Assembly (NCBI GenBank): GCA_048938105.1
Contig: JBHLMN010000012.1
Span: 1-64,000, forward strand
Direction: 5' to 3'
DNA: 64,000 nucleotides
Origin: Promethearchaeota archaeon
Lineage (GTDB): Archaea; Asgardarchaeota; Heimdallarchaeia; Hodarchaeales; Hodarchaeaceae
Shown: in pieces, positions 2,105 to 61,606 of the stretch
Position numbering within the stretch: position 1 is the stretch's first letter
Layout: each line of letters begins with the position of its first letter
Notes under the pieces: model-generated
Databases searched by the model: none
What the model was told of the DNA's origin: nothing
What the model saw: the letters and a program-made list of their open reading frames with translations, nothing else
Made by a program: the position numbers and the translations under genes

Positions 2105-2132
2105 TTTGAGAACAACCAGTCTTTTGCGAAGT
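2105..2132 (+). repeat. dif-like site (class I)
   Basis: tttgagaacaa-ccagtc-ttttgcgaagt. Confidence 0.55.
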
Positions 2133-2181
2133 TGTATTACAAGAGGTATCTTTTTATATATGTTTGAACATACACATACAC

Positions 2182-2403
2182 ATGGTAACAAAAACTATTA
2201 CTATAAAAGAAGAAGCTTATAGGGCATTGAAATCATTACAATTGGAAGGAGAATCGTTCTCGGACACAATTTTACGTATTTCTAGTTCATTTGGCAACCT
2301 CAAAGATTTTTGGGGTGCTGGGACAAAATCCTCAAAAGAATATGAAGCAGAACTTGCAGAAATCGAACAAAGACGGCTAAACTTCTTCCAAGGACGGCAA
2401 TAG
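2182..2403 (+). CDS. vapB: VapB-family antitoxin (DUF217-like)
   Basis: MVTKTITIKEEAYRALKSL...ESFSDTILR signature; immediately upstream of a PIN gene; ATG 2182 preferred over TTG 2164. Confidence 0.85.
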   Translation: MVTKTITIKEEAYRALKSLQLEGESFSDTILRISSSFGNLKDFWGAGTKSSKEYEAELAEIEQRRLNFFQGRQ

Positions 2404-2404
2404 C

Positions 2405-2800
2405 ATGAAGTTTTTAGATACTTCTTTCTTAATCGATGTCATTCGAAAAAGTAAATCTGTAAAAGAACTTTTAAATGAGATCGATGAACACAGACCACAT
2501 GTGACGAATACGATTGTCGTTCATGAATTTTTAGTTGGTGGATATGGAGCTCCAAATCCAGAGAAGGAATTAAAAATACGAAATGACCTTTTGAGTAGAA
2601 TAATTATATTAGACTTTGATCTTGACGCAGCAAATAAATCAGTGGAGCTTGAAGCAGAATTACGAAAGAAGGGGGAGTTAATTGGAGGAGCTGATATACT
2701 TATTGCTGGGACTATGCGCTCGCGCGGAATCAGGACGATTGTAACCAAGAATACTAAGCATTTTGAGAAGATTAGTGGTATTCATATCCAAACATGGTGA
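2405..2800 (+). CDS. vapC: VapC PIN-domain toxin
   Basis: FLDTSFLID, VVHEF, ADILIAGT and TKNTKHF PIN motifs. Confidence 0.92.
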   Translation: MKFLDTSFLIDVIRKSKSVKELLNEIDEHRPHVTNTIVVHEFLVGGYGAPNPEKELKIRNDLLSRIIILDFDLDAANKSVELEAELRKKGELIGGADILIAGTMRSRGIRTIVTKNTKHFEKISGIHIQTW

Positions 2801-2814
2801 TTAATTAATTCTTT

Positions 2815-2842
2815 ATTGTATTAATCCAGCCTTTGACACCGT
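2815..2842 (+). repeat. dif-like site (class I)
   Basis: attgtattaat-ccagcc-tttgacaccgt. Confidence 0.7.
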
Positions 2843-3127
2843 GTATGTGAATTCTAGATATCTCCTTCTGAATCTGTATATGTTATTTTTATCGAAGAAA
2901 TCACCAAGATGAAGGTAGAAGAAAGAACAAATACTAATAAGTTTTGTGATTTCTATTGTTTGAATAGGTTAGCTGAAAATCTAACCAATTCTAGATAACC
3001 TATCGATTTGGAGATTCTGGGTTTTCTTGATATCAGTGGAATCACTATTGAAGAACATCCGAACGATATTAATAGTAAATCCTTAGAGAGATTCAAATCA
3101 AAAGTTTTCGTAAAAATGGGATGAATC

Positions 3128-4534
3128 ATGGACTTGTTTGATGAAGACTTGCTGCTTCTAGGTCTAAAGGAAGGAGAAGATTTTGGCGCAAAATATGTGG
3201 AATTAAGATATCAAGATAAATATCTAGCCAATTTTAGGTATCGAAATGAGGAACTAACCAGTACATTAGGATCGAGAGAAGGGATATGTGCAAGAGTTTT
3301 GATTAATGGTAGTTGGGGGCTTTCTGCGACAAATAAAATATCGAAAAAAGAAATTAAAAATACTGTTCAATCAGCAGCTAAATTAGCTAAGAGTTCAGCT
3401 TCTTATAAAGATGAAAAAGTTACTTTAGCAGAAATAGAAATTATTCAGGATGAACAAATCTCACCAAGAAAGCGACATTTGTTTGATTTATCAACAGAAG
3501 AGAAAATTAAATCCATTATCAATGCGACGAAGGTTCCACAAGATCATCAGTCCATAAAAAGCCTAATGGTTAATTATAACGAGGTTATTGACAAACGAAT
3601 GATTGTAACTAATGAGGGGGCCAAAGTCAGCTGGATCGATATGAAACCTACTCTGATAGCCTATGCAGTAGCAATAGAAGAAGGAAAAATGGCAAGTGGA
3701 TATAGTTCTTGGTCCCATACATGTGGTGCGGAATTTTTTGATTTACACCCAGTGAATGAGGTTGTGGAGAACAGTATGCAGAAAGCAATGAACCTAGTCA
3801 AAGCACCTCTTCCCCCTAGTGGCGAGGCTAATCTCTTATTAGATCAACAGCTTGTAGGAGTGTTTGCCCACGAAGCTATAGGCCACTGTGCTGAAGCTGA
3901 TCTTGTTAGACTGGGGTCATTTACTCAAGGAAAACTTGGTGAACAAGTGTGTGATGAAAGCATTACGATTATAGATGCGCCTGTTGTAAAGGGTTCGGAA
4001 TGGATGGGAGCAGGATGGTTACCATTCGATGATGAAGGTGTAAGAGGAAAAACTACATATATTATTAAGGAAGGCATAATGCATAGTTATCTAACCAACA
4101 GAGCTTATGCAGAAGAATTCGGGTTGGAAGCAACGGGAAATGCAAGAGCATACAATTTTACTGACGAGCCAATTGTGAGAATGCGAAACATATATATTCA
4201 ATCTGGGGACATGACTCTTGATGAGCTATACGAATCAGTAGGTAATGGATATTATCTTAAATCCTTGCAAAATGGTCAAGCAGATAGTTCTGGTGAATTC
4301 ATGTTTGGTGCTGTTGAGTGTTATACGATTAAGAATGGCGAAATTACAGACGAATTATACCAGAATCCAGTCTTAACAGGAAATGCTTTTGAAGTATTAT
4401 CTAATATATTAGGGATAGGAAAAGATTTTGATGTGAATCTCGGAGCAGGATTTTGTGGGAAGGAACAACCTGCAAAAGTAGATGCAGGTGGACCACATCT
4501 TGCAGTAAGAGCAATGCTAGCAGGAGGAGAATAA
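3128..4534 (+). CDS. tldD: TldD metalloprotease
   Basis: FAHEAIGHCAEAD (HExxxH), FDDEGV, PIVRMRN and CGKEQ motifs. Confidence 0.92.
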   Translation: MDLFDEDLLLLGLKEGEDFGAKYVELRYQDKYLANFRYRNEELTSTLGSREGICARVLINGSWGLSATNKISKKEIKNTVQSAAKLAKSSASYKDEKVTLAEIEIIQDEQISPRKRHLFDLSTEEKIKSIINATKVPQDHQSIKSLMVNYNEVIDKRMIVTNEGAKVSWIDMKPTLIAYAVAIEEGKMASGYSSWSHTCGAEFFDLHPVNEVVENSMQKAMNLVKAPLPPSGEANLLLDQQLVGVFAHEAIGHCAEADLVRLGSFTQGKLGEQVCDESITIIDAPVVKGSEWMGAGWLPFDDEGVRGKTTYIIKEGIMHSYLTNRAYAEEFGLEATGNARAYNFTDEPIVRMRNIYIQSGDMTLDELYESVGNGYYLKSLQNGQADSSGEFMFGAVECYTIKNGEITDELYQNPVLTGNAFEVLSNILGIGKDFDVNLGAGFCGKEQPAKVDAGGPHLAVRAMLAGGE

Positions 4535-4535
4535 G

Positions 4536-5942
4536 ATGTCAAGTGAAACCAAAGAATCCTTTCTTGATATTGGCCACCAAGTGATTAAATATGCCAATAC
4601 AAAGGATATTGACGCAACAGAAGTCTTTTTCCATCAGAGGAAAGCGATTCAAGTCCTGACCGAGGGACAATCCATTGCTACCGAGAGGCTTACATCTGAA
4701 TCTGGATTTGCTATAAGAGTACTCAACAAGGATGTCGAAGGATTCTCTTATACAAATAAAACCGATATTAAGGCTCTAGAGTCTTGTGTTGATGAAGCAG
4801 TTAACATAGCTCGTGTTGTTCCACCCACACCTGGAATTAGATTTACGGTACCAACAGATTATCCCCAGATTACGGGTAGATATACCACTTCAATTGCTGA
4901 TTTAACCAGTGAAGAGTTAATTGATAATGCTAAAATGGTACTTCACCCATTAAAAGAAGCAAAAGTTAGTGTAAGAACCAACCTAAGTCAAATAGCGGTT
5001 CATGAAGAGGCTTACGGGATCATTAATTCCTTAGGTGTTGAAGGATATTCAAGATCAAATTGTATTAAAGGACTTTTTCTGGCGGTTGCTCGAGAGGGGG
5101 ATAAAGTGGGATCATTTGTTTTTGATGATTTTTTTGCCCATGAAAGTAATCAAATTAACTTTTCAGAGTTTGGAGAATCATTAACCACAAAAGCCATGCA
5201 AAATTTAGCAGCAAAAACACCTCCTACTATAGATTCAGATGTGGTGGTTTTTAGTAAAAATGGTGTTTTCGAACCCCTTTTATACGTCATCGCACATTCT
5301 ATAAGGGCTGATAGCGTGGATCAAAAAAGATCTATGTGGATGGATCATTTAGCTGATTCAGTTGCAGTAGAAACCTTCACTCTTATAGACGATTCCCATA
5401 ATCCCAGTGCTGGAGGCGGATGTAGAGCCTTTGATGACGAAGGGAATCCTACATGTAAAACCTCAATCATTAAGAAGGGAATTCTTGAAACCTTCCTCTT
5501 CGATGAATTAAGAGCAAATAAAATGGAAACTCAATCCACAGGTAACTCTTGGAGAGGATTGGGAGGAATAAAATTCCTACAACCACCTAGCGAAATTTTT
5601 CCCAACGCTCCCGTAATCTTACCAGGAGACATGGAGACTGAAGAATTCTATGAAGATATAAAACTTGGGATTCAATTTGAATACTTTTCTGGATCCGTTA
5701 GACCAGAGAACGGGATATTTAGTGGGGTGGCAAAAGGAGCTCAACTAATCAGGAATGGGGAATTAGCAGAGCCACTAATCAATGTGTCGATTGGTGGGAA
5801 CATCTTTGACTGCTTAACAAATATCACAGGGCTTTCAAAAGAGACAGAGTTGACTGGAGGGGGATTTATATTGGCAGGTGGCGTATCTTTAACTACTCCC
5901 CTTATCAAAACACATGGAATTAAAATTACGACACAGAAATGA
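4536..5942 (+). CDS. pmbA: TldE/PmbA partner
   Basis: FDDEG and STGN motifs, lacks HExxxH; directly downstream of tldD. Confidence 0.88.
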   Translation: MSSETKESFLDIGHQVIKYANTKDIDATEVFFHQRKAIQVLTEGQSIATERLTSESGFAIRVLNKDVEGFSYTNKTDIKALESCVDEAVNIARVVPPTPGIRFTVPTDYPQITGRYTTSIADLTSEELIDNAKMVLHPLKEAKVSVRTNLSQIAVHEEAYGIINSLGVEGYSRSNCIKGLFLAVAREGDKVGSFVFDDFFAHESNQINFSEFGESLTTKAMQNLAAKTPPTIDSDVVVFSKNGVFEPLLYVIAHSIRADSVDQKRSMWMDHLADSVAVETFTLIDDSHNPSAGGGCRAFDDEGNPTCKTSIIKKGILETFLFDELRANKMETQSTGNSWRGLGGIKFLQPPSEIFPNAPVILPGDMETEEFYEDIKLGIQFEYFSGSVRPENGIFSGVAKGAQLIRNGELAEPLINVSIGGNIFDCLTNITGLSKETELTGGGFILAGGVSLTTPLIKTHGIKITTQK

Positions 5943-6065
5943 GTGTTTTATGCCCAAAATTCGAGTAACTACTTAATAAATTACTCGGAATAGTATTTAT
6001 GTCCCTCTGATCTAGCCAACTTCTTAGTAAACCTTATAGAGAAATCAACCAGAGAATTTTTGATT

Positions 6066-6093
6066 TTGGTGTTAATCCAACCATAGTTTTAAA
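6066..6093 (+). repeat. dif-like site (degenerate right arm)
   Basis: ttggtgttaat-ccaacc-atagttttaaa; left arm and core match the 50609 site. Confidence 0.6.
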
Positions 6094-6317
6094 AAAGATA
6101 AAAATAAACTTCAGAGGGATTTTTTCAAGAGAATAAGACATGGAGGAGGAGTTCTTGAATAAATACCAATGAAGGCACTAAAACCTGCTTCTATAGACAA
6201 AGATTTTTGAGATAAAGTGTTATATCTCTGGACATATCTTAGAAAGCTGAGAATTATGGAAAGATAAACTCAAGGGTCACATTAAGACACCTGGCGCAAT
6301 TTGGGAAGTATTTATTC

Positions 6318-7622
6318 TTGAAAAAGATAAAATTTTTGATTTATTTTCCTTTGATTTTATTACTACTAATAAATCATCAAATAACAAATCCTTCGAAAAT
6401 TACTGTTAAAGCAAATGGTAGTAATTCAAAAGAATTTGGTTGGCATTTGCATAAAATTCATGCTATAGATGCTTGGAAAATTACAAATGGCTCATCTGAT
6501 ATAAGTATAGCAGTTATTGATTCTGGAATTAATTTTAGTCATCCAGAATTAACTCATGCACAGTGGATAAACAAAGGTGAAGATCCAGATGGAAATAATG
6601 GATTAGATGATGATAACAATGGTTATACGGATGATAGATGGGGATGGGATTTTGTGAGTCAAGATAAAATACCCGGTCCTGAACCTAGTGACCCCATTCA
6701 TAGGCATGCTACTTTTATTGCTGGAATAATCGCTGCATCCATTAATAATGAGGGGATTGCTGGGATTGCTTCTAATGTCACTATCATGGATCTTCGAGTT
6801 CTTAAAGATGATAATTATGCTGGAACTACTAATGAAGGATTAGGCGAATCTATTCGTTATGCAGTTGATAATGGAGCAGATATTATCAGTATGAGCTTAC
6901 AATATTATCCCAATTCAACAGTTTATTATGATGATATACAATATGCTGTAGCAAATGATGTTCCTATTGTTTCTATTACAGGTAATACTTGGTTAGCATC
7001 CGGTGGTGGAAAATATTATCAATCATTTCCAGGAGGGTATAATGAGGTAATTTCAGTTGGAGCTACTAATTATACTGACCATAAAGCTGATTATAGTAAT
7101 TATGGCGAATGGACTGAGCTAGTAGCTCCTGTGGGTGATCAAATGTATGATACTCTTGATCACTTGATTAAAAGCACTCATTTAAATGGAAAAAGTTATG
7201 CCAATAGTTATGGAACATCTTACGCTTGTCCACAAGTTTCAGCAACAATTGCTTTAATGAAATCAATCAATTCAGAAGTCTCATATAATGAAATTAGAGA
7301 AATCTTACATGCGACTGCAACAGATCTTGGTATTGCTGGTAAAGATGATTATTTTGGTTATGGAATGCTTAATGTTACTGGAGCTCTTGAAGAATTAATT
7401 GATAAAACAACTACTGTTTCAACATCCACTTCTTCAACAGCTTCTACAAATACCTCCACTTCTTCAACAGCTTCTACAAATATCTCCACTTCTTCAACAG
7501 CTTCTACAAATTCAATAACATCGAGGAATGGAATTGGAGGTTATCCTACAACCATAACTTTGTTTTGCATTTCTTTACTAATAGTTAGTGATCGTATAAG
7601 AAAATACAAGAAGAGAAAATAG
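6318..7622 (+). CDS. Secreted, membrane-anchored S8 subtilisin-like serine protease
   Basis: Catalytic triad motifs AVIDSG, HATFIAG and GTSYACP; signal peptide; S/T-rich linker, TM helix, basic tail. Confidence 0.92.
   Translation: MKKIKFLIYFPLILLLLINHQITNPSKITVKANGSNSKEFGWHLHKIHAIDAWKITNGSSDISIAVIDSGINFSHPELTHAQWINKGEDPDGNNGLDDDNNGYTDDRWGWDFVSQDKIPGPEPSDPIHRHATFIAGIIAASINNEGIAGIASNVTIMDLRVLKDDNYAGTTNEGLGESIRYAVDNGADIISMSLQYYPNSTVYYDDIQYAVANDVPIVSITGNTWLASGGGKYYQSFPGGYNEVISVGATNYTDHKADYSNYGEWTELVAPVGDQMYDTLDHLIKSTHLNGKSYANSYGTSYACPQVSATIALMKSINSEVSYNEIREILHATATDLGIAGKDDYFGYGMLNVTGALEELIDKTTTVSTSTSSTASTNTSTSSTASTNISTSSTASTNSITSRNGIGGYPTTITLFCISLLIVSDRIRKYKKRK
7421..7510 (+). repeat. 30-bp coding tandem repeat x3 (S/T linker)
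   Basis: tccacttcttcaacagcttctacaaa repeated with period 30. Confidence 0.9.
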
Positions 7623-8731: not shown

Positions 8732-8759
8732 ATGTCACAAAAGGCTGGATTAGCACTTA
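8732..8759 (-). repeat. dif-like site (class I)
   Basis: atgtcacaaaa-ggctgg-attagcactta. Confidence 0.85.
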
Positions 8760-9180: not shown

Positions 9181-9208
9181 TCGTCGTAAAAGGCTAGTTT
9201 AGGTTAGA
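9181..9208 (-). repeat. dif-like site (class I)
   Basis: tcgtcgtaaaa-ggctag-tttaggttaga. Confidence 0.75.
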
Positions 9209-9263: not shown

Positions 9264-12095
9264 TTATCTTTTCTTTCGTCTTCGTATGAATACTATTAGG
9301 AAACCAAAGACTAAACAAACTTGTAATACTCCAGGAAAAGTACTTGATCTTGTGGTCGTTGTGCTTGATTTAGAAGTTGTTTTATGAATAGAAGTCGTGG
9401 TAGTAGTAGTACTCGAACTAGTATCAGGTTGACTGGTAGTTGTAGTTGTGGTGGTAGTAGTAGTCGTACTAGTATCGGGTTGACTGGTAGTTGTAGTTGT
9501 GGTGGTAGTAGTAGTCGTACTAGTATCGGGTTGACTGGTAGTTGTAGTCCCTGTTGTAGTTGTTGTAGATGGGCTTTCACTAATTTCAAATATATATTCA
9601 AGAGTGGGAGTAGAATAGAATTCGTGAGTGGCAGTAATATCGACACGTTTTGATCCACTGGAGGATAATTCACTACAATCCACAGGAATCAGAGAGAAGC
9701 CAATGGTACCGTTATCCAGAGTAGTTGCTTCCCATCCTTGAGCAGCTATGTTGTATTCAATGACGGCACCATCAATTGCTTTATGCAAATGAGTATCTTC
9801 ATAATACAGAATAATGGTGAATTGCTGATCAGGATCAAATATAGCGTTTTGAGGAGGTTCGATTAACAGTAAATTGGATTCTCCGATAATTGTGAGAGAA
9901 ACTTCCAAGAAACCCACAGCAATCCCATTATGCCAAGATACTTGGACACGAAAAACCCCATATTGAATTACAGTGTCTGAAACATCCCAATCTCCAAGAG
10001 AGAACTCTTGGCCAGAGTTAAACGTAGTTTTGACAAGTGTAAAGTTTAATACATCATTAATGGGAGCTGGACTATAGATACTCAAGTTAATCAGTCCATC
10101 ATTTTGGAATATCGTTTCTTTGAAGCTTACATTGAAGTGTACAATGTCTGAATAATTAACTACGTTTTCAGGTTCAGAACCAAGATAAGAATCGATCGAT
10201 GCTACTAGATTTTCTGAGGAGGCTGTTAAATACCAATCTCCACTCCCAGCATTCAATACGTAAATTTCACTATAACCATTATTCAGGATTCTAACTGATA
10301 CATCATCAGTTCGATTTATTGTCCCATTGAACACATTGATATTATACCAACTGCTAGGAATCGTGAAATTGATCATAGCTGTCTCATTAATGCGGGGATC
10401 AAGATAATTTAATCCTTCAGTATCTGTTACATGCCACAATACTTCTTGTTCGCTTCCCACCGTAAAATTTGAGTTCGCTTTTCCATCGGTTTTCGTATAA
10501 ATAATTTGAACAGAGGTGATTGTACAGGAGACATCCCACCAATCTGCTGATAAGGTGAAGTTTATGGTCCCAGATGGATTCGAGTATTGATCTATTGAGA
10601 GCCAAAAACCAGCTCCGTAACTTGTATTATGCCCAGTAACGGGATTATCGTTTATTTTCAACCCAATTTTCGATGGGATATCATCTATAATGTGTAGATC
10701 TAGTTTTAAATGAAAATCAACTTTTTGACTAAATGCCTCTGCTAAAATCCATTTTGTTGAGGGAAAGGTTTGATAGGTATAACTTCGCGTATCATCCACA
10801 CCATTCCCTTGGGAAATCCAATTCCATTCCCAGTAACCTTCGTGAAGTGAACTAATAATGGTAAATAATCCAATAAACCACGTATTATTTTCTGTTTTCG
10901 AGTTGTCTAAATAAATATGAAGTTCTCTCAATGTAATCCATTCTAAAGACGTAGAATAATCAATAATCCCTAAATCCTGAATAAAATCATTTTTAAGTCC
11001 ACCTGGTTTGCTTACCATGTCACTAGAATTCCATGTTGAATTAAATAAAGCTAGTCTTACAGTAATATTTTCAGGACTATATGGATTATAGAGTTCCACT
11101 GAGACATTTTCGAGAAAACAATTATCCCTAACCTCAAAAGAGGAAGCTGCAGGTACAACATCATCAAATTGCTGATAATTATTATCTGGGCCATCCTCAA
11201 CGATCAACGTTTGGTTGGGAGGAGAAATAGAAGGACTTAAATCAACTTTTAAATGATAATCTCTAGTTCTCTTAAATACATCTTGCCTTAATTGCCATTT
11301 ATTAACAGTGGTGTTATAAAAATAACTCTCGGAATTATCACCATTTGCATCATCGCGTGTGAACCTCCATTCGTGAGTTCCTGGTCCTGATTTAAACACA
11401 GCAATAAACCAGGTCTTATTTTCAGTATTGGAAATATTAAGAAATTCATGTACTCTTGTAACACCCATCCATCCTTCACTTGAAGCTCCTATTGTAAATA
11501 AACCTAATTGAGTACCTAATGCCACTCCGACAGGTTGACTTCTTGATTCTGTACTATTCCATTCAGAACTGAATAAATCTATTCTAATTGTAGCACTATT
11601 AGTTCCCAAATTTCTAAGATATACGGAGACATTTTCTAAATATCCATTACCTTTAATCCAAAATGATGTAGCTTCTGGGTATCCTGAAAGAGGTTCATTG
11701 CCCTGATTTATTCCCTCTTCAATTATCAGTGTTTTATTGGGAGCATAGATCTCCTCAATAGTCATATTCACAAGCGAACTGGGAAAATTCTCAGTAGTAG
11801 GGCAGGGTTCATAAAAAGTGTTATTCAGTGGATCGGAAGTATTTGTGACAGTAATGGGAGAGGACTCAATTAAGGACTGTTGCAAAGTAATATTGCAATT
11901 TTCCCCATTTCCAGTAAAAGTAGGAGTATAATCTGAGGTTATTTCACTCCCCGATAAAATTCTTTCATTTCCAGCATGGTTTAGTGCATGGTAACTGATT
12001 GGATTTAAAATAATAGAATGCAGATTTAAACTAATCATGAATAGAAGAAGAAGCAAGCTAATGCTTCCCCATTGAGTTTTCTTTCCTGTGTTCAT
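9264..12095 (-). CDS. Large secreted cell-surface glycoprotein with duplicated beta-rich domain, Thr-rich linker and C-terminal anchor
   Basis: Signal peptide; internal repeat (NKTLIIEEG..ENKTWFI vs NQTLIVEDG..ENNTWFI); many NxS/T sequons; FPG + TM + RRRKKR. Confidence 0.8.
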   Translation of the reverse strand: MNTGKKTQWGSISLLLLLFMISLNLHSIILNPISYHALNHAGNERILSGSEITSDYTPTFTGNGENCNITLQQSLIESSPITVTNTSDPLNNTFYEPCPTTENFPSSLVNMTIEEIYAPNKTLIIEEGINQGNEPLSGYPEATSFWIKGNGYLENVSVYLRNLGTNSATIRIDLFSSEWNSTESRSQPVGVALGTQLGLFTIGASSEGWMGVTRVHEFLNISNTENKTWFIAVFKSGPGTHEWRFTRDDANGDNSESYFYNTTVNKWQLRQDVFKRTRDYHLKVDLSPSISPPNQTLIVEDGPDNNYQQFDDVVPAASSFEVRDNCFLENVSVELYNPYSPENITVRLALFNSTWNSSDMVSKPGGLKNDFIQDLGIIDYSTSLEWITLRELHIYLDNSKTENNTWFIGLFTIISSLHEGYWEWNWISQGNGVDDTRSYTYQTFPSTKWILAEAFSQKVDFHLKLDLHIIDDIPSKIGLKINDNPVTGHNTSYGAGFWLSIDQYSNPSGTINFTLSADWWDVSCTITSVQIIYTKTDGKANSNFTVGSEQEVLWHVTDTEGLNYLDPRINETAMINFTIPSSWYNINVFNGTINRTDDVSVRILNNGYSEIYVLNAGSGDWYLTASSENLVASIDSYLGSEPENVVNYSDIVHFNVSFKETIFQNDGLINLSIYSPAPINDVLNFTLVKTTFNSGQEFSLGDWDVSDTVIQYGVFRVQVSWHNGIAVGFLEVSLTIIGESNLLLIEPPQNAIFDPDQQFTIILYYEDTHLHKAIDGAVIEYNIAAQGWEATTLDNGTIGFSLIPVDCSELSSSGSKRVDITATHEFYSTPTLEYIFEISESPSTTTTTGTTTTSQPDTSTTTTTTTTTTTSQPDTSTTTTTTTTTTTSQPDTSSSTTTTTTSIHKTTSKSSTTTTRSSTFPGVLQVCLVFGFLIVFIRRRKKR
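9397..9548 (-). repeat. 51-bp coding tandem repeat, about x3 (SQPDTSTTTTTTTTTTT)
   Basis: ctagtatcgggttgactggtagttgtagttgtggtggtagtagtagtcgta unit. Confidence 0.9.
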
Positions 12096-12349: not shown

Positions 12350-12377
12350 ATTTCGTCCATAGCTGGTTTAAATTGGT
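12350..12377 (-). repeat. dif-like site (degenerate)
   Basis: atttcgtccat-agctgg-tttaaattggt; resembles the 28671 site. Confidence 0.55.
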
Positions 12378-12621
12378 AGGGTTGGTAACAGTTGAAATTT
12401 AGGTGCTTAAATATGGTTATTCATACTGAATTATGAATAAGTTCCGTCGCCGAGAGTTCTGCGGAGACGTTAAACGCTTGTGGAGAGTTGATAAGACCTG
12501 TATATCAGTAGGCGCACCTCAATGAAGTATGAAGACTAGCACTATCGAAGACTGGTCATAAAAGGCCATAACTGTCCTCATTAGGTAAGTCTTTCAGAAC
12601 GGTATATAATCACAACTTAAT

Positions 12622-12649
12622 AATTGGCAAAAGGCTAGATTAACACTTT
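12622..12649 (-). repeat. dif-like site (class I)
   Basis: aattggcaaaa-ggctag-attaacacttt. Confidence 0.7.
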
Positions 12650-18970: not shown

Positions 18971-18998
18971 ATGTCATCAAACCAGCCCTCTATAATTG
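18971..18998 (+). repeat. dif-like site (class II)
   Basis: atgtcatcaaa-ccagcc-ctctataattg. Confidence 0.85.
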
Positions 18999-20846: not shown

Positions 20847-20874
20847 CCGTCGCAAAAGGCTGGATTAACACCCA
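20847..20874 (-). repeat. dif-like site (class I)
   Basis: ccgtcgcaaaa-ggctgg-attaacaccca. Confidence 0.9.
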
Positions 20875-21026
20875 ACTTATAGAAAACCAGTTATCTTAAG
20901 TACTTCACTATTTATCTTAAGTACTTCACGTATCTTTGGGAAGAATAAACAGCAGTATTCAAGAAGAAAAGTATGAAAACGGCAGTTTTCCTTTTTGTAC
21001 AATTTCGTAATGTCATCAAACCAGCC
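20858..21026. mobile_element. Internally deleted copy of the GNAT module 25513-27165
   Basis: 20864-20910 matches 25519-25565 and 20928-21026 matches 27066-27165 with few differences. Confidence 0.9.
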
Positions 21027-21037
21027 TTCTTCATCTA
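21010..21037 (+). repeat. dif-like site (class II)
   Basis: atgtcatcaaa-ccagcc-ttcttcatcta. Confidence 0.9.
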
Positions 21038-22735: not shown

Positions 22736-22763
22736 ATTTCGTAAAAGACTGGTTTAGAATTCA
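22736..22763 (-). repeat. dif-like site (class I)
   Basis: atttcgtaaaa-gactgg-tttagaattca. Confidence 0.7.
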
Positions 22764-22860
22764 AATCAAGGATAAAAAAGAGTCAGTTGAAAGATGGAAC
22801 TCATAATCGAATTTGCCAGTCAGTAAGAGAAATCTTAAAGAAATATGAGGTCTTTGCTGA

Positions 22861-23991
22861 GTGATTGAGATGAAAAACCGAAAATATGATTTTGAGGACC
22901 TAAATTTTCATCATTTAACCCTTGAAGGGACACATTATGAGGTGGGACAGCAGATGGCCAGGTTATTAAGCACTATCCCGGGATGGAGCGATTTTGCATC
23001 CTCTGGGAAACTCAATCTTAAAAAAGTGCGATTTCCAAGCTTTAAGGAATTATGGGAGTATACAGAAGAGTGTTGTCCAGGAGTGACTCAAGAAATCCAA
23101 GGATTTGCGGATTATTTTAAAGTATCACCTAAAACACATCCTTTTTGGAATTGGACGTTCAATGATTCACTTGGAGGGGAATGTTCACAGTTAGCTGTTT
23201 TATCACGAGTTACTTCAAATCAACACACACTCGTAGGACGGAGTTATGAATGGAATCACAAAGAAGAAGACATGAAATTAATAACTACTAGAATAAAGAG
23301 GAAAGCAGCACATATTGGTTTTTCTTGTCTACTACACGGTCGTCATGATGGTATGAATGAACATGGCCTGGTAGTATCAATGACAGGGGGTGGAATATTT
23401 GGTGTACCATTTAAACAGAGAGGACCCATGTTCTGGTTAACAATAAGGGCCATACTTGACACCTGTACATCAGTAGATCATGCACTCAATTATCTGAGAG
23501 AATTACCAGTGAACGGATATTTTTCCCTTCTTCTCGTGGATCAACAAGCAAATGCAGCTATTGTGGAATTTGCAGAAGAAAAGAAATTCGTTCGCCAAAT
23601 AGGTGACACAGGAGACTTATCATATCTTTTTTCAGTGAATCATTATCGTTCCCCTGAAATGGAAGAATTTAACAAGCTTAATTGTGGAATAATCACTCAC
23701 TCAAAGATCCGTGAGAAATTAATTACGGATTGGTATCAAGGACATACTTCTAAAATTTCTGCGGAGGATGTACGCACACTCTTTGCTACTCTCCATCCTG
23801 AAGGGTTATGTAATCATTTTTACAACGGAGGGTTTGGCACCTTGTGGTCTATGATCTTTGATATCAACCAAATGGCAGTAGATGTGTGTTTTAGTGCGCC
23901 AACCCACAACAAGTATCATACATTCGATCTAACATCTCCTTGTGGAATAACAGAGTATCCTACTACTGTTCCCATTACAGAATGGTATTAA
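22861..23991 (+). CDS. C45 family Ntn-hydrolase (acyl-CoA:6-APA acyltransferase-like peptidase)
   Basis: GTHYEVGQQ, ECSQ nucleophile, VGRSYEW and DGMNEHGL. Confidence 0.88.
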   Translation: MIEMKNRKYDFEDLNFHHLTLEGTHYEVGQQMARLLSTIPGWSDFASSGKLNLKKVRFPSFKELWEYTEECCPGVTQEIQGFADYFKVSPKTHPFWNWTFNDSLGGECSQLAVLSRVTSNQHTLVGRSYEWNHKEEDMKLITTRIKRKAAHIGFSCLLHGRHDGMNEHGLVVSMTGGGIFGVPFKQRGPMFWLTIRAILDTCTSVDHALNYLRELPVNGYFSLLLVDQQANAAIVEFAEEKKFVRQIGDTGDLSYLFSVNHYRSPEMEEFNKLNCGIITHSKIREKLITDWYQGHTSKISAEDVRTLFATLHPEGLCNHFYNGGFGTLWSMIFDINQMAVDVCFSAPTHNKYHTFDLTSPCGITEYPTTVPITEWY

Positions 23992-24124
23992 GATTCTAGC
24001 TAACACATTCTATTTGAGTTTAGATTTTAGATTTCAAGCTGGTCTACCCAAAAGAATTTAGAATTTCCGAAATTAAACGTAAAACCATATCCCTGTTTTT
24101 ATGATAAGAAGTTAGCCTTTATCT

Positions 24125-24152
24125 ATGTCGCCAAAGGCTGATTAGCAGATTT
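24125..24152 (-). repeat. dif-like site (class I, 1-nt core deletion)
   Basis: atgtcgccaaa-ggctg(-)-attagcagat. Confidence 0.75.
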
Positions 24153-24340
24153 CTGTTGTTCACAAATCACCAAAGGGAAGTAAAAACTTGAAGAGTGTTG
24201 ATGACATTCTGTCAATGATAAAAACTCTAGCTAAAATGGGAATAGATCATGCAATCTTTAACATGCGCAATCCATTAGCTGAACAAGAGCCTCTTACGAT
24301 CTTTCGTGATGAAATTATCCCCATCGCTCAGGATTTGTAG
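24146..24340 (+). pseudogene. 3' fragment of a gene, resembling the C-terminus of an LLM-class flavin/F420 oxidoreductase
   Basis: Open frame ...SVDDILSMIKTLAKMGIDHAIFNM...EPLTIFRDEIIPIAQDL* begins at the site; 5' part of the gene is missing. Confidence 0.5.
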
Positions 24341-24523: not shown

Positions 24524-24551
24524 ATGTCGTCAAACCAGCCTAAGACAAACG
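24524..24551 (+). repeat. dif-like site (class II)
   Basis: atgtcgtcaaa-ccagcc-taagacaaacg. Confidence 0.9.
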
Positions 24552-24574
24552 TCGTAATATTCTTGATTATAAAA

Positions 24575-24955
24575 TCACAAACCAAATCGATAAATTTTTC
24601 CAGACTGAAGAATACTACATAAAAACTTGATATCATCTGAAGGCGTGCCCTTAAAAGGACTTTCAATAGCATTTTCTTGATGTCGTGGATGAGTATGATG
24701 TGGTTTAGAAGTTACTTCCCATTTGTCATCAAAATTATCGAATCTGATACGATCTAGCTTCTGGGAGGAAAACATCACCACATAGGAATATTGTCCATAA
24801 TTATTATAGCGAATGAAGACTGTCACTCCGCTTTTCAATTTTATTCCTAATTTGCCAGTATCTTCGTCTAGATCAATCTCGGAAATAAACCCTCGTAATT
24901 CTTTGAGAATAATATCATATGCTTTAAGAATTAGTTCCTCAGATAACAAGATCAT
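24575..24955 (-). CDS. DUF6516/TumE-like putative toxin
   Basis: YSY...IRFDN...T-PHHxH motif. Confidence 0.7.
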   Translation of the reverse strand: MILLSEELILKAYDIILKELRGFISEIDLDEDTGKLGIKLKSGVTVFIRYNNYGQYSYVVMFSSQKLDRIRFDNFDDKWEVTSKPHHTHPRHQENAIESPFKGTPSDDIKFLCSILQSGKIYRFGL

Positions 24956-25198
24956 TCACTGTAAGCCAAGTAACAGTTTTTCTATTTCATTTCGTTTATC
25001 ACGTAAATTCTGTAAATCTATTGCATCGTCTTCAGCTTCAGGTAAGGTTCCAGTCTTTGTGCCTTTGATTAATTCGTCAATTGAATTAATATTCCATTTC
25101 CTGAGGATTTTATCAATTTTTTCAGTCAATACACGGAGTTTTGTTTCAATTAAATCTCGTGCTGTTTCAGAATCTAAAGTAATGGACATCTTACTCAT
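24956..25198 (-). CDS. Putative antitoxin of the DUF6516 toxin
   Basis: 80-aa acidic helical protein abutting the toxin gene. Confidence 0.6.
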   Translation of the reverse strand: MSKMSITLDSETARDLIETKLRVLTEKIDKILRKWNINSIDELIKGTKTGTLPEAEDDAIDLQNLRDKRNEIEKLLLGLQ

Positions 25199-25501
25199 TC
25201 CTACAATAGAAACATTTATTTTAAAATGTTATCAATATTCAGATTTAAATTTGAATAAAATTTTTTTTAAACCACTTGTTCAGATAAGTGATAATATTAG
25301 TTAAAAAGATAAAGCTATGGTTAGAATTACACTTTATATTGCCTGAAGAAGACCTTGAAGAGTTAGAATTACATGAGCTTAAACAAATAAGGAAAAAAAT
25401 GGAAGAGGGAGAACGAGCTCGCTGGAAAAAGGAATGAGTGATCAATTACTCAATTTTCTTACATTTTTTATTCTTTTGTGTTTTATAAGATATCCTTTCT
25501 A

Positions 25502-25529
25502 ATATCGTAAAAGGCTGGATTAACACCCA
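25502..25529 (-). repeat. dif-like site (class I)
   Basis: atatcgtaaaa-ggctgg-attaacaccca. Confidence 0.9.
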
Positions 25530-26129
25530 ACTTATAGAAAACCAGTTATCTTAAATACTTCACTATTCTTCTTGCTTCTACAATATTCCACGAATTTTTG
25601 TGGATTATTTGAATAATTCTTTAGTTCTCCTCCCAATATAGCATGGTCTACGATCACTGATCTGTTTGTTTTCCAAAAGAAAGAATAAAAAATGAATGAT
25701 TTTGAAGTGATTTCATGAATTTCGTCAAAATTCATAAAATTGTTGCTGTAGATCAGATAAAGTATTTTAATTTATCTTAAAATCATTTGGTGTTTAATTT
25801 ACTACAAGTGACAATATGAGCATAAACAATACCAAGAAGTTGTACAATCTAAGGATGTAGAGATATTCCAGATTGATATAAAAGTTCTTTCTTATTGATG
25901 TTAATAATAAATTGTTTTCGGAAAGAACGATTGAATCAGCTGTTGTATTTAAACAGCTTGATCCATGAGATATTGATTTGAAATTAAATTCATTTCATAT
26001 CTTCTGCATAACAAGGATAAGTATGAGATTTTCGGTGTTTTCTCTTATTGAAACCATTAGATCAATCAAAAAATAAGTTTTTAAACCTTATAAATCTCCC
26101 TATAATCCAAATTATTCAAACTTGGTGTT

Positions 26130-27086
26130 GTGAAATTGGAAATACATGTGAATGAATGGGAAAAAGTCCAACTTGACAAAACTGCTAGGCTAATTTTTGA
26201 TTCCAGGCTTGGAGCTTTAGGTGAAATAAACACCGTTGTTATAAGACTAAAATCATTACGAATGGAATTATCTCCGAATCCTGTGTATATCATTCAAGCC
26301 GTTGAGAAAGAAAAGCTGGTTGGTTGGTTAATGCTCCATCTAATGAATGGTTCAACAGTTGAATTAAACCCTGGTTCACTTCTAAAGGGACACCCTGTAA
26401 TTTCACCAGAGATGAATTTTCATAAAATAAGTTCTAGATTGATAGAAGAAGCTATAAATTGGACTAAAAAGGAAAAATTCAAAAAAATTGACCTCACTAT
26501 TCCGATAGAAGAAGAAGAAGCCAAGAACAGGGATTTTCTAGATTTTTACGGAACTTATGGATTCAAGAAGACATACTTCTGCATGCAATGTGAACTTTTT
26601 GAGCAGAAGATTGATCAAGTTATGATTCCTGAAGATTTTGAGATCAAACAACTTAAAATGCTTAACCATGAAGACATATACAGATGTTATTATGATGCGT
26701 TCAATACTGGTCAATCTCCTTTCTTTTTTGAGCAAAGCGAAACAGAAAAAAGGGATTATTTTGACACTTTACTCACGGAAATCACTTTAAATGAAGAAGC
26801 ATCTCTAGCAATTCTGAAAGGTAATCAGCTCGTAGGTTTTACACTTGTCGCTCCCATATTCGGTGAAACCAATAAACATCTAAATTGCATATGTATTCGT
26901 CCAGATTTCAGAAAAAAAGGATTAGGAAGAAATCTTCTTGCTGCTACAATGAAGAAGGTTGTTAAACAAGGAAATAGAACAATGACCTTATACACTGATG
27001 TATTTAATACGCGGGGAATAGATCTTTATCAAAAAAATGGATTTAAAGAAGGAGGTGGGACTATTACGTATCTTTGGGAAGAATAA
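26130..27086 (+). CDS. Tandem GNAT acetyltransferase
   Basis: CIRPDFRKKGLGRNLL and N..GIDLYQKNGF; degenerate N-terminal GNAT. Confidence 0.9.
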   Translation: MKLEIHVNEWEKVQLDKTARLIFDSRLGALGEINTVVIRLKSLRMELSPNPVYIIQAVEKEKLVGWLMLHLMNGSTVELNPGSLLKGHPVISPEMNFHKISSRLIEEAINWTKKEKFKKIDLTIPIEEEEAKNRDFLDFYGTYGFKKTYFCMQCELFEQKIDQVMIPEDFEIKQLKMLNHEDIYRCYYDAFNTGQSPFFFEQSETEKRDYFDTLLTEITLNEEASLAILKGNQLVGFTLVAPIFGETNKHLNCICIRPDFRKKGLGRNLLAATMKKVVKQGNRTMTLYTDVFNTRGIDLYQKNGFKEGGGTITYLWEE

Positions 27087-27148
27087 ACAGCAGTATTCAA
27101 GAAGAAAAGGTATGAAAACGGCTGTTTTCCTTTTTGTACAATTTCGTA

Positions 27149-27176
27149 ATGTCGTCAAACCAGCCTTCAGTACCGA
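27149..27176 (+). repeat. dif-like site (class II)
   Basis: atgtcgtcaaa-ccagcc-ttcagtaccga. Confidence 0.9.
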
Positions 27177-28670: not shown

Positions 28671-28698
28671 ATGTCGTCTATGGCTGGTTTAATAAAAT
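28671..28698 (-). repeat. dif-like site (class I variant)
   Basis: atgtcgtctat-ggctgg-tttaataaaat. Confidence 0.8.
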
Positions 28699-31778: not shown

Positions 31779-31806
31779 ACATCGTCAAACAAGCCTTCCA
31801 TTCGTT
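31779..31806 (+). repeat. dif-like site (class II)
   Basis: acatcgtcaaa-caagcc-ttccattcgtt. Confidence 0.75.
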
Positions 31807-33598: not shown

Positions 33599-33626
33599 AT
33601 GTCGCAAAAGGCTGGTATAGATAGCA
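33599..33626 (-). repeat. dif-like site (class I)
   Basis: atgtcgcaaaa-ggctgg-tatagatagca. Confidence 0.88.
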
Positions 33627-34296: not shown

Positions 34297-34324
34297 ATGT
34301 CGTCAAACCACCATTATCCCACTG
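34297..34324 (+). repeat. dif-like site (class II, 1-nt core deletion)
   Basis: atgtcgtcaaa-cca(-)cc-attatcccac. Confidence 0.8.
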
Positions 34325-34565: not shown

Positions 34566-34593
34566 TTTTCGTAAAAGTCTGGATTAGCACCTT
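34566..34593 (-). repeat. dif-like site (class I)
   Basis: ttttcgtaaaa-gtctgg-attagcacctt. Confidence 0.8.
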
Positions 34594-42006: not shown

Positions 42007-42034
42007 ATGTCGTCAAACCAGCCTGAGAGAAGCT
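42007..42034 (+). repeat. dif-like site (class II)
   Basis: atgtcgtcaaa-ccagcc-tgagagaagct. Confidence 0.9.
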
Positions 42035-42927: not shown

Positions 42928-42955
42928 ATGTCGTAAAAGGTTGATTTGCCACATA
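42928..42955 (-). repeat. dif-like site (both arms fairly close to consensus)
   Basis: atgtcgtaaaa-ggttga-tttgccacata. Confidence 0.8.
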
Positions 42956-50608: not shown

Positions 50609-50636
50609 ACGGTGTTAATCCAACCTTTTGCGACAC
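50609..50636 (+). repeat. dif-like site (class I)
   Basis: acggtgttaat-ccaacc-ttttgcgacac. Confidence 0.9.
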
Positions 50637-57357: not shown

Positions 57358-57359
57358 AA

Positions 57360-58454: not shown

Positions 58455-59980
58455 TTGAAAGGTATGAAAAAGATTTTTCAAAACAGTTAAACACAAATAT
58501 CCCACCACATTGGCGAGTTAGGGAAACTGAATCATATAAAAGACAACCCACCACAAAGCGAATCGTAGCAATAGGGGGAGGAGATAACCGTTTTCGGTCA
58601 TTACTGATTAATGCAATTAAAGAAGCTCAGCATACTATCATGCTTTGTTCATTTATATTGAGCGATGAACAGATAATTGAGGAGATCTTAGGAGCTGCTG
58701 ATCGCGAAGTCCGATGCTATTTGATGTTTTCTACTGAAACACAGTTAAAAAAGGAGTACCGCGAAGACATGACAGAGTTTGATCAAAAGACACTTGATGC
58801 TCATAAAAAAATGCTTGACCAACTAGTAGGAAAAGCATTAGCTCGTACAAATGAACATTTACATGCTAAATTTTTACTGATTGATTATAGTTTTCCCTCA
58901 CAAAAAGGGTTCATAAGTACTGCTAATTTTACATATGAAGCATTAACACGAAATCAAGAAATTGGGATTATTCTTACAGAAAAAGAAATCAATGAAGTTT
59001 TTGAATTTTTTAGATTTGGATTTTGGTCCGAAAGTAATCAAGAATTATTACGGATTAGGAGTTGGGATGATGTTAAGAGAGAACATATCAATGTAAACAA
59101 TAATTATTTAAGGATCAGGACAACAACTGTTCAAAATCAGGGAATTAAAAATGAAATTTTTAATTGTATCAAAAACGCACGTGGTTCGCTGATTGTTGCA
59201 AGCTATGGATTCGATGTTGACCATGAAGTAGCAGAAGCTTTGTATCAAAAAGCACAAACAAACGAACTCACTATAATAACACGTCCTAGGGACAGAAACA
59301 TGCCATTTATCGAAAAACTCTCAAATTCAGGAGCAACCATATTCAGTTTCAACTTCTTACATGCAAAATTCATTTATGCTCCGAAAGAAAAATATGGATT
59401 TATCATGACAGCAAATATCGAACCTCGTGGATTAGATACTGGTTATGAAGTTGGAATATTGCTAAATGAGGAGGATTACTCTGAACTTAATGTGATCATC
59501 AATGAATGGCTCAAACATGCTCCTTTGAAGTGGGAAAAAGGTGGAAATGTGCAAATCCTATCTCCAGGAAAAATATTGATACCAAATGGAAAGGAATCCG
59601 AAGAAAAAGAAATCATTCTTGAGTATTCTCTGCCAATTGAAGAAGAGTCTCCACCAGACCTTTTCAAAATGAAGAAACTAATGGAATCTCCCCCTAGAAT
59701 CCCTGAAAAAGTACCAGGATTATTACCCAAAGTAATAAAAGTAAAAAAGATTATTAATCCTCCAATTTTACCTAAAAATGCTGTGAAGATTGATGCAAAT
59801 GAATATTGGAGAAATACATCAAGTAAAGCAGAGTTGAAAAAGAAAAAGATTAAGAAATTTCCTATAACAGTTTATAAACTAAAAAATAATTATTATGGGA
59901 TCATTAAATCGTGGAAGGAATTTGAGAAGGTGAATAATCATCCCGATCTACCAAAAAATATTATATTCATTTCGGAATAA
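58451..59980 (+). CDS. Phospholipase D-family nuclease (two HxK motifs)
   Basis: HLHAKFLLID...STANFT and LHAKFI...TANIE; ATGA overlap and GGAGG RBS favour start 58451. Confidence 0.88.
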   Translation: MIERYEKDFSKQLNTNIPPHWRVRETESYKRQPTTKRIVAIGGGDNRFRSLLINAIKEAQHTIMLCSFILSDEQIIEEILGAADREVRCYLMFSTETQLKKEYREDMTEFDQKTLDAHKKMLDQLVGKALARTNEHLHAKFLLIDYSFPSQKGFISTANFTYEALTRNQEIGIILTEKEINEVFEFFRFGFWSESNQELLRIRSWDDVKREHINVNNNYLRIRTTTVQNQGIKNEIFNCIKNARGSLIVASYGFDVDHEVAEALYQKAQTNELTIITRPRDRNMPFIEKLSNSGATIFSFNFLHAKFIYAPKEKYGFIMTANIEPRGLDTGYEVGILLNEEDYSELNVIINEWLKHAPLKWEKGGNVQILSPGKILIPNGKESEEKEIILEYSLPIEEESPPDLFKMKKLMESPPRIPEKVPGLLPKVIKVKKIINPPILPKNAVKIDANEYWRNTSSKAELKKKKIKKFPITVYKLKNNYYGIIKSWKEFEKVNNHPDLPKNIIFISE

Positions 59981-60100
59981 CCAATACACTTTGTTTAAAT
60001 AATACAAAGTATAAGTTTGAACCAATTTCACAATGTGTAAAGAATAAGATATTTTTATAAGATTTAAACGAAAAATATTATGCAAAAAAAATATTGTTAA

Positions 60101-61543
60101 ATGTTTAGAAGGGACTCATGGATGAGATTCAGAATAAATGGGAATGTTGTTCAACTACTAACAAATCAAAATTGGACTAATGTTTTTCAACAAAATAATC
60201 CATATCAACGAGTTGGTATATCCTGCTATACAGAAAAATCTCTCATGGGAGGGTGGGTCAATCTTCCTCTCTCATTTCCTTTTGAATTTGAAGCTTTAAG
60301 CTATACTAATCGCCGATTTAATAATTTGGTTGTTCTTGAAATTACAGTTGAACGATTCACTCAGTTAAAGCAGCTCTCACACCAATTGATTGATTCCTTT
60401 ACAGATTATAGTTATAAGGGTGGACTCAAAAGACCATTAGTTTATGAAGTATTAAATGATTTCCTCATAGAATTACCTCATTTCAGAGACAATATGACCC
60501 TACTTCTTCAAAAGGTAGAAACTGAGTTTTCTTGGCAAGATGCTACTCAATATAATTGGAATGAAATTCGCGGAGATATCAATCACTATACAAATATTGT
60601 TCAAGTGAATCACTTGCCTTCAGAGTATCAAAAAATATTTAGAAAGCTTTATCATGAATTAAAAGATTTAGAAAATGTGTTTAATCCGAGTGTTGTTTTT
60701 AAGCAAGTATTTAAACGTGAGTTTGATAAATATAGTGATATATTTGAAGAAATTGTTAATCAATATACTAAACCAAACTTAGATTTACAATCCCTTTCAA
60801 TTATCTATGAAGATATTAATACATTGGATTCAAATGTTAAGGGACTTTGGGAACAGATCAATGATTATAATAGAAACTATGCAAATTCTGTGAATGAATT
60901 GAAGAATGAGCTCTTGAATAAAATTAGTCACTTAAAAAATAAAATCCAAAACGAATATCATGAACTAGAACAGCTCCATCAGCTAAAACAAAAGCGGAAA
61001 GCTATTGAACAAACAATTCTTCAACAATTAAAACTTCTAACACCAGGAATCCAAACACTCTTGACACGTATTAGCGAGTTGACTGACATTGATAAAAAAA
61101 TTGTTGAAGAAACCATAATCAGATTATTGGAGAGGTTCCCCGATTTAGGAAGTTATGATAAAGTATCTCAGGTCTTCATACTTGGGCAAAACATGCCAAC
61201 AGAAATTAATTCTATTTTAGATAATTATCCAAAACCCTCATTCGAAGATATTATTGTAAACCTAGAAAAAGGGAAAGAACCCGATAATGAACAACTCTAT
61301 TTCATTGTTGGAAGGTTACATAAAGAAATAGAATCTGTAATTCGAACATTAGTAGGAAACGAATCTAATAATGATTTTAAAGACAATATTAATCAGGCTT
61401 TTGATCAAGAGTACATTAATAAGAACGAAAAAGATGTTCTTCACGCATTTCGTAAAGCAAGAAATATACTAATGCACGAGGAAGGGGAATCTTTTCCTCT
61501 AGAGTTGATTCTGAATGTTAAAAGCATTCTCGAAAGATTATGA
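60101..61543 (+). CDS. Coiled-coil protein with C-terminal HEPN-like domain
   Basis: Heptad-rich middle; LHAFRKARNILMHE (R-N-x3-H). Confidence 0.6.
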   Translation: MFRRDSWMRFRINGNVVQLLTNQNWTNVFQQNNPYQRVGISCYTEKSLMGGWVNLPLSFPFEFEALSYTNRRFNNLVVLEITVERFTQLKQLSHQLIDSFTDYSYKGGLKRPLVYEVLNDFLIELPHFRDNMTLLLQKVETEFSWQDATQYNWNEIRGDINHYTNIVQVNHLPSEYQKIFRKLYHELKDLENVFNPSVVFKQVFKREFDKYSDIFEEIVNQYTKPNLDLQSLSIIYEDINTLDSNVKGLWEQINDYNRNYANSVNELKNELLNKISHLKNKIQNEYHELEQLHQLKQKRKAIEQTILQQLKLLTPGIQTLLTRISELTDIDKKIVEETIIRLLERFPDLGSYDKVSQVFILGQNMPTEINSILDNYPKPSFEDIIVNLEKGKEPDNEQLYFIVGRLHKEIESVIRTLVGNESNNDFKDNINQAFDQEYINKNEKDVLHAFRKARNILMHEEGESFPLELILNVKSILERL

Positions 61544-61578
61544 ACAAAAAATTTATCGTTGAATTCCTCACCCTTTTA

Positions 61579-61606
61579 ATTTTATCAATCCAGCCTTTTA
61601 CGACCT
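61579..61606 (+). repeat. dif-like site (class I)
   Basis: attttatcaat-ccagcc-ttttacgacct. Confidence 0.85.

Follow-up and report, generated by a model that had tools for sequence, protein, structure and literature searches.

Arrays of candidate dif-like recombination sites chain self-contained gene modules in a Hodarchaeales archaeon

The first 64,000 nucleotides of contig JBHLMN010000012.1, from a Promethearchaeota archaeon of the order Hodarchaeales (GenBank assembly GCA_048938105.1), form the window analyzed here, equivalent to positions 1-64000 of the contig we call C63. The genome under study, G000, comprises 5.85 Mb on 65 contigs; other G numbers denote its relatives. The genes in the window form a succession of small functional units, namely VapBC, a TldD/PmbA pair, a subtilase, an S41 peptidase, an ABC transporter pair, a TumE toxin-antitoxin pair, a GNAT acetyltransferase, HerA-NurA, an AriA/GajA-like ATPase, a TIR cluster, and a pVip viperin (E 2e-88) with CARF-like proteins, an MkoA-like helicase and a DrmC-like PLD nuclease. 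Pfam and PADLOC assignments agree with the units named in the original prediction, in which 24 copies of a short dif-like motif were proposed to divide the window into mobile gene modules. We find that these sites chain self-contained modules of 0.1-11 kb, each with its own promoters, into large chromosomal arrays. The cargo includes toxin-antitoxin pairs, defence systems, proteases and transporters, many of the modules being antiviral, and gene direction relative to the sites is approximately random, with both orientations in about equal numbers.

The motif is present at all 24 claimed positions, far above chance expectation. Scans of the window with up to two mismatches allowed return six matches to the class II pattern ATGTCRTCAAACCAGCC against 0.02 expected by chance, and nine to the class I pattern CCAGCCTTTTRCGACAT against 0.01 expected, and a looser scored scan of the whole window yields zero sites beyond these 24. 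Every one of the 24 lies between open reading frames (ORFs), as judged from the ORF map and Pfam matches, so the claim that the motif is always intergenic holds in the window; in a wider typed set of 147 sites, drawn from the G000 arrays and 51 contigs of relatives, 141 fall outside ORFs of at least 70 aa.

The sites are built from arms of unequal quality around a spacer. Class A sites have an 11-nt strong arm (ATGTCGYMAAA), an asymmetric 6-nt spacer (GGCTGG) and a weak right arm that reads ATTARCACC or TTTAGRTTA, the latter being frequent in the genus and usually followed by a TATA-like AAAAGTATATAC. Class B sites read ATGTCGTCAAA-CCAGCC-variable, with the strong arm on the opposite side of the spacer relative to class A; read in spacer orientation they are without a left arm and carry on the right a perfect inverted strong arm. 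Strong and weak arms have the inner TTT-K-R / Y-M-AAA positions in common, and conservation is confined to about 26 nt, with none beyond. The window holds 11 class A sites on the plus strand and four on the minus strand, seven class B sites, one site with a right arm only (6066) and one that joins a strong arm and spacer to a degenerate inverted strong arm (42928; Table 1), and four of these sites (2105, 12350, 24125, with a 5-nt spacer, and 34297) are decayed. Among the 147 typed sites, class A with either right arm accounts for 109 and class B for 26, followed by eight with a strong arm only, three with a right arm only and one with two strong arms; every common type thus carries exactly one strong arm.

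The two classes originally described are correct, as is the palindromic site obtained by joining their conserved arms, whose exact sequence TGTCGTCAAACCAGCCTTTGACGACA is found once, in a relative (G017:C82:264-289). Inverted arms of about 11 nt around a 6-nt spacer are seen in palindromes with this spacer and with others, and the strong arm is identical to the arms of full palindromic 11-6-11 sites elsewhere in G000, which upholds the tyrosine-recombinase architecture. Folding of eight sites as single-stranded DNA gives no hairpin (z-scores -0.18 to +1.34). When all spacers that follow strong arms in the G000 genome are considered, only GGCTGG and CCAGCC are enriched. The class B spacer is inverted relative to those of neighbouring class A sites in seven of seven cases in the window and on 10 of 11 contigs of relatives, and class B sites are never adjacent to one another, so that B seems to be an internal swap point and not the site of a free one-site circle. 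In one class A site on another contig (C39:249487-249607), the spacer is interrupted by about 84 nt of inserted DNA with inverted ends, CAGTACTTCGCA ... TGCGAAGTACTG.

The case for these sites as crossover points comes from comparing the distal flanks of all pairs among the 147 typed sites. Homology extends to the left only in 14 pairs and to the right only in 11, with no pair homologous on both sides, and all 25 informative pairs lose homology at the spacer. The strong arm tracks the left flank, and the right arm, be it one of the two class A types or the class B inverted strong arm, tracks the right flank. This comparative evidence suggests that strand exchange occurs at the spacer, and the flanks have separate histories, with the same modules standing beside other neighbours in other species, in line with the original prediction.

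Several modules illustrate this. The TumE module (24525-25526) has an 89% identical counterpart, G003:C109:1746-2742, which also lies between B and A sites, with different neighbours. The GNAT module (25502-27165) is duplicated as a 163-nt deletion derivative at 20847-21026, and its start occurs a third time on C39; homology stops at the sites. Homology to C43 and to G020:C429 begins exactly at the class B site at 21010, an A-to-A module is common to G012:C235 and G002:C48 with differing outer flanks, and the module to the left of 42928 runs through the strong arm in G003:C47, to be followed there by CCAGCC rather than GGTTGA. G003 is closely related to G000, with 91% identity in the 5' part of xerA, and yet its module neighbours are different, so module order changes fast. 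The module at 22821-23998 is 85% identical to its G004 counterpart, compared with 69% for xerA and 72% for the TldD/E pair, and another module is 92% identical to that of G014, compared with 78% for xerA; module identities above that of xerA point to transfer between species. A search for an ancestral junction by way of array anchors found homologues of TldD/E and of the first module in G004, G017, G009 and G018 in site-free DNA, with no junction. The TldD/PmbA pair itself (3128-5942) is 72-73% identical to copies in site-free DNA of G004 and G017, and looks like housekeeping-type genes captured into the array.

The polarity of the strong arms switches twice along the window (Table 1), and each switch falls on one of the only two half-hybrid sites: 6066, with a right arm alone, and 42928, with a strong arm, a spacer and a degenerate inverted strong arm. 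With one gap allowed, 9 of 10 positions on the right side of 42928 agree with an inverted strong arm. We infer that the two are the reciprocal products expected from a single 36.8-kb inversion between a class A and a class B-like site with their spacers aligned. Undoing this inversion turns 6066 into GGTGTTAAT-CCAACC-TTTTACGACAT, which is the class A consensus, and makes all strong arms of C5 and C63:1-73 kb co-directional. The sole fully palindromic GGCTGG site, that of G017:C82, shares its left flank with a G004:C63 class A site and its right half with a B site, a composition that provides independent support for A x B inversion. Class B sites may have arisen in a similar event, an inversion between a palindromic site and a secondary site. 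Its products would be one A-like and one B site whose strong arms point the same way, the arrangement observed for all seven class B sites of the window and on 10 of 11 contigs of relatives.

A scan of the whole genome and its relatives restricts the sites to a few accessory arrays. In G000 the arrays span about 215 kb (3.7% of 5.85 Mb) on six contigs, and the genome has about 75 sites, located at C63:2-73 kb, at C39:190-271 kb, and on C43, C5 and C13, and near-absent elsewhere. This confinement rules out a genome-wide operator, the very outcome that the original prediction had named as its own refutation. The array-bearing contigs are chromosomal and reach 273 kb, with 77-nt end overlaps joining C5 to the start of C63, C39 to C1, and C43 to C13; on C39 all sites run in one direction, as a long co-directional run of class A. 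Class A sites are found in 17 of 20 genus genomes and are rare in other families, class B sites are found in 16 of the 20, and a metagenome scan for class A returned nine short contigs only. Searches of IMG/VR and JGI metagenome contigs for a donor element with a perfect palindromic CCAGCC site found none.

The recombinase was predicted to be encoded outside the window, and indeed no array contig carries a gene for a PF00589 tyrosine recombinase. G000 has three such genes elsewhere, one of which (C14:173949-174839) is a clear orthologue of XerA (283 bits on NCBIfam XerA_Arch, cut-off 220), its best solved relative being P. abyssi XerA (4A8E). A perfect strong-arm 10-mer lies at C14:173925-173934, 14 nt upstream of the xerA start, a position at which 4e-4 would be expected given 59 strong-arm 10-mers in the whole genome. 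A strong arm stands just upstream of xerA in 12 of 14 relatives as well (13 of 15 genomes with G000), in either orientation and amid differing surrounding sequence, and this arrangement suggests autoregulation by XerA. In eight genus genomes XerA is the only PF00589 match and sites are present. A further link to XerA is that the strong arm also forms the arms of the palindromic 11-6-11 sites. We consider it probable that a tyrosine recombinase uses the motifs as core-type sites; the chromosomal XerA is the likeliest enzyme, and we lean towards it as the catalyst of the exchange. Serine recombinases are also present, and were rejected for this role as IS607-like, located away from the arrays and a misfit to an 11-6-11 site.

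It strikes us as unlikely that the sites are run by a dedicated integrase encoded elsewhere and not by the housekeeping XerA. The other two PF00589 genes of G000, for a 289-aa Xer-like protein at C56:201270-202139 and a broken gene on C45, are candidates for such an enzyme, and about half of the genus genomes encode a second Xer-like recombinase scoring 90-105 bits; moreover, metagenome-assembled genomes (MAGs) are incomplete, which makes the absence of a second recombinase weak evidence. However, the C56 protein falls far under the XerA cut-off and has no strong-arm motif beside its gene, the C45 gene has an internal stop, the strong arm is kept just upstream of xerA, and the eight genomes with XerA as their only PF00589 match bear sites nonetheless.

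With XerA or a similar tyrosine recombinase as the enzyme, crossover would take place in or at the edge of the spacer, such that the strong arm would travel with the DNA of one side and the weak arm with that of the other. Two class A sites in direct order would permit a module to be excised or inserted. The spacers of A and B face opposite ways, so a module with A at one end and B at the other should not be deletable; instead, a pair of exchanges with another DNA copy, A x A at one end and B x B at the other, would swap it, as proposed for the pdif modules of Acinetobacter plasmids. Recombination of A with B would invert the intervening DNA and produce one site with two strong arms and one without a strong arm. 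Circular intermediates and a route of cell-to-cell transfer would complete the model.

Three further explanations dispense with site-specific recombination at the motif by an Xer-like enzyme, and we regard each as very improbable. The motif might be the operator of a DNA-binding regulator, or a boundary element for chromatin or SMC (structural maintenance of chromosomes) proteins in accessory intergenic DNA, with the module boundaries a side effect. Palindromes with variable spacers do occur at single loci genome-wide, often just downstream of genes, and one half-site lies in the promoter region of xerA, but an operator would not account for flank homology that breaks exactly at the spacer in all 25 informative pairs, for sites at no fixed distance or direction relative to genes, for the single multi-copy spacer family, or for hybrid sites at the ends of the inversion. 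We give equally little credence to the idea that the sites are left-over 3'-end copies of a target gene, deposited by repeated integration of elements or homing-endonuclease cassettes. One frame does read Arg-Lys-Arg-Leu-Asp-stop, with TAA, TAG or TGA at the stop position in most copies, a pattern that follows from the arm consensus TTT-K-R; yet in G000 none of the ORFs that end in a site exceeds 45 codons, 50 nt separate the first site of the G009 array from the gene before it, the same arms occur as perfect inverted repeats, and class B cannot be a gene tail. An intact founder gene ending in the repeat was sought among the G000 ORFs and at the head of the G009 array, and none was found. Least probable of all are the ends of transposons or miniature inverted-repeat transposable elements (MITEs), with terminal inverted repeats GGCTGG-WTTRAC around A-to-B units, for although the A and B spacers are inverted copies and the 163-nt A-to-B unit is MITE-like, that unit is a deletion derivative of the GNAT module, the arrays contain neither target duplications nor a transposase, the C39 arrays have co-directional A sites only, B-to-A intervals are mobile too, and both flanks assort independently at every site type.

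Several observations nevertheless weigh against recombination of the arrays by XerA as proposed. No recombinase gene adjoins any array, the half-site upstream of xerA could be the target of another protein, and, as noted above, a second Xer-like recombinase is present in about half of the genomes of the genus. One contig, G002:C84, violates the orientation rule for class B spacers, and the account of why class B retains the exact reverse-complement spacer is conjectural. The match at 42928 needs a gap, so the partner in the inversion may have been a secondary site and not a true class B site. The genomes are MAGs, in which assembly errors may occur at repeats. Finally, the chromosomal dif site was sought among the palindromic sites and was not identified, so that the term dif-like rests on the architecture and on the half-site upstream of xerA.

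The search for dif drew on palindromes of the form TGTCGYMAAA-N6-TTTKRCGACA, perfect or near-perfect and each with its own spacer, which number 2-10 per genome in 19 of 20 relatives, compared with 0-1 for a control pattern. Those of G000 (Table 1) are all intergenic, often just past the end of a gene, and one of them may be dif; the turn in GC skew near C14:86372 is only suggestive. Palindromes with identical spacers in different species (TATCTG, CTGGCA, CATCAA) often have no flanking DNA in common. Sites with a TCATNN spacer were rejected as dif for want of synteny between species. The perfect palindrome with the spacer CAAGAC is present in at least nine genomes and was rejected since it lies inside a coding gene (G009:C1:3452204-3452229, with an orthologue at C36:45.3 kb). 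That gene reads ...SVAKQDFDDT... at this point, and the palindrome could be a coding coincidence or an attachment site within the gene. An Rfam search with a repeat beside one palindromic site gave no match.

A bolder reading unites these elements, and we offer it as possible while doubting it as a whole. Classes A and B would be the halves of one palindromic, dif-like XerA site split by inversion, so as to leave one strong arm per module, and the palindromes with the same arms and private spacers would be mutually incompatible sites distributed genome-wide. Together they might constitute a natural system of multiplexed cassette exchange driven by the housekeeping enzyme of chromosome resolution, through which viperin and TIR genes would be traded between species.

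The closest analogue is the set of pdif/xrs modules of Acinetobacter Rep_3 plasmids, which are acted on by XerC/XerD (PMC11705084, PMC6449649). Both systems have accessory modules that are complete in themselves, frequently toxin-antitoxin pairs, bounded by numerous dif-like 11-6-11 sites with one well-conserved arm and one poor arm. Adjacent sites often face opposite ways, which blocks simple excision, and the same module is found between the same sites in different replicons. Most pdif sites beside genes are inverted or differ in their central regions; excision has not been seen, and exchange is thought to proceed via cointegrates formed at compatible sites (PMC11705084). The recombinase of pdif/xrs is a housekeeping Xer encoded elsewhere, and the same would apply here if XerA is responsible. 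Of the features by which pdif modules are recognized, recurrence in other contexts and opposite flanking sites are found here, and plasmid-borne XerC/XerD arms in Acinetobacter are not. In contrast to the plasmid-borne pdif modules, the arrays are archaeal and chromosomal and occupy about 215 kb in one genome; a single XerA would take the place of XerC plus XerD, with no FtsK; one dominant spacer occurs in both orientations, with a half-site class (B); and there are long co-directional runs, as on C39, that would permit integron-like excision, with a cargo given over largely to antiviral defence.

Integrons and CALINs (clusters of attC sites lacking integron integrases), including archaeal ones (PMC9668308), are similar in that cassettes lie between recombination sites and are shared across species in varied order, and in that many arrays have no adjacent integrase. 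Here, by contrast, the sites are simple double-strand-type sites of 26-28 nt and not attC hairpins; there is no IntI, the only universal tyrosine recombinase scoring 173 bits on the integron-integrase model where the cut-off is 265; and the genes run in either direction from their own promoters, whereas integron cassettes are mostly promoterless and co-directional. The pdif/integron-like platform of the original prediction is thus borne out in its likeness to pdif, and the integron comparison applies to function only, attC hairpins, IntI and a shared gene direction all being absent. The third comparison is with dimer resolution at archaeal dif, a site of 11-6-11 layout cleaved at the spacer ends (PMC8371274). 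Both have 11-nt inverted arms, a 6-nt spacer and a single XerA (Cortez 2010; reviewed in PMC8371274). Unlike dif, which is present once per chromosome with two good arms, the sites described here number about 75, have one good arm each and serve gene shuffling and not dimer resolution. The paper that describes closed genomes of this genus makes no mention of such sites (PMC8813620). Our literature searches found no published description of this system.

Hodarchaeales are placed closest to eukaryotes among the archaea. The system described here would provide a concrete mechanism for part of the gene flow by which they acquire and lose genes. Viperin, TIR proteins and further defence genes that have eukaryotic counterparts are among its cargo, and some modules are more alike across species than a core gene is. 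Xer-driven gene mobility is known from bacterial plasmids and phages, and the arrays would extend it to archaeal chromosomes and to a single-enzyme XerA system. As one protein and 28-bp sites should suffice, the system is attractive for work in vitro.

Table 1. Sites, modules and polarity segments in the window, with palindromic sites elsewhere in G000. Positions without a contig name are those of the window; other positions are given as contig:position.
Feature	Position	Strand	Remarks
Class A, decayed	2105..2132	-	strong arm and spacer GACTGG; right arm off consensus
Class A	2815..2842	-	right arm ATTAATAC; left flank and site match C39:250460-250508 and G003:C47
Hybrid	6066..6093	-	GGTGTTAAT-CCAACC-unrelated DNA; right arm and spacer without strong arm; left end of polarity-flipped segment
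Class A	8732..8759	+	homology to G020:C101 begins within spacer (8746)
Class A2	9181..9208	+	right arm TTTAGGTTA, then TATA-like box
Weak A2-like	12350..12377	+
Class A	12622..12649	+	spacer GGCTAG
Class B	18971..18998	+	right flank same as that of B site at G018:C77:13497
Class A	20847..20874	+	opens 163-nt remnant of GNAT module
Class B	21010..21037	+	break point of leftward homology (27149) and rightward homology (C43:8385, G020:C429)
Class A2	22736..22763	+
Class A	24125..24152	+	one-base spacer deletion; homologous to site C5:1502
Class B	24524..24551	+	left boundary of TumE toxin-antitoxin module
Class A	25502..25529	+	right boundary of toxin-antitoxin module and left boundary of GNAT module
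Class B	27149..27176	+	right boundary of GNAT module
Class A2-like	28671..28698	+	strong-arm variant GTCGTCTAT
Class B	31779..31806	+	spacer CAAGCC
Class A	33599..33626	+	strong arm perfect; right arm TATAGATAG
Class B, decayed	34297..34324	+	spacer CCACCA
Class A	34566..34593	+
Class B	42007..42034	+	left boundary of toxin-antitoxin-like module
Hybrid	42928..42955	+	ATGTCGTAAAA-GGTTGA-TTTGCCACAT; strong arm, spacer, degenerate inverted strong arm; right end of polarity-flipped segment
Class A	50609..50636	-	spacer GGTTGG
Class A	61579..61606	-	right arm ATTGATAAA
Toxin-antitoxin (TumE) module	24535..25512		between B site 24524 and A site 25502
GNAT acetyltransferase module	25513..27159		deletion derivative 20858-21020; same start at C39:258171
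Polarity-flipped segment	6083..42938		36.8 kb; all 18 internal sites on plus strand
Site polarity	C5 and 2105-6066	-
Site polarity	8732-42928	+
Site polarity	50609 to C63:72.7 kb	-
Palindromic sites outside window	C14:86372, C14:250385, C28:1274, C63:92681, C2:22049
Palindromic sites outside window	C4:241, C11:34801, C47:22211, C53:77809, C53:230099

Some of the DNA between sites merits separate mention. A repeat of about 160 nt at 12442-12604, between the sites at 12350 and 12622, is present in many copies in every genus genome (at least 10 in G002 and G013); in G000 it also occurs at contig ends beside IS607/TnpB-like fragments, and it looks MITE-like. A stretch of 176 nt (24164-24339), with an A site on one side and a B site on the other, is 80-87% conserved in C5, G001, G014 and G016, and a 50-codon open frame spans 24188-24340, with no long ORF upstream; the stretch is probably a gene-end remnant in an emptied module. 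In-frame tandem repeats lie within two genes, as 51-nt units at 9393-9566 in a gene for a 943-aa protein on the minus strand, and as three 30-nt units at 7422-7511 at the end of the subtilase gene.

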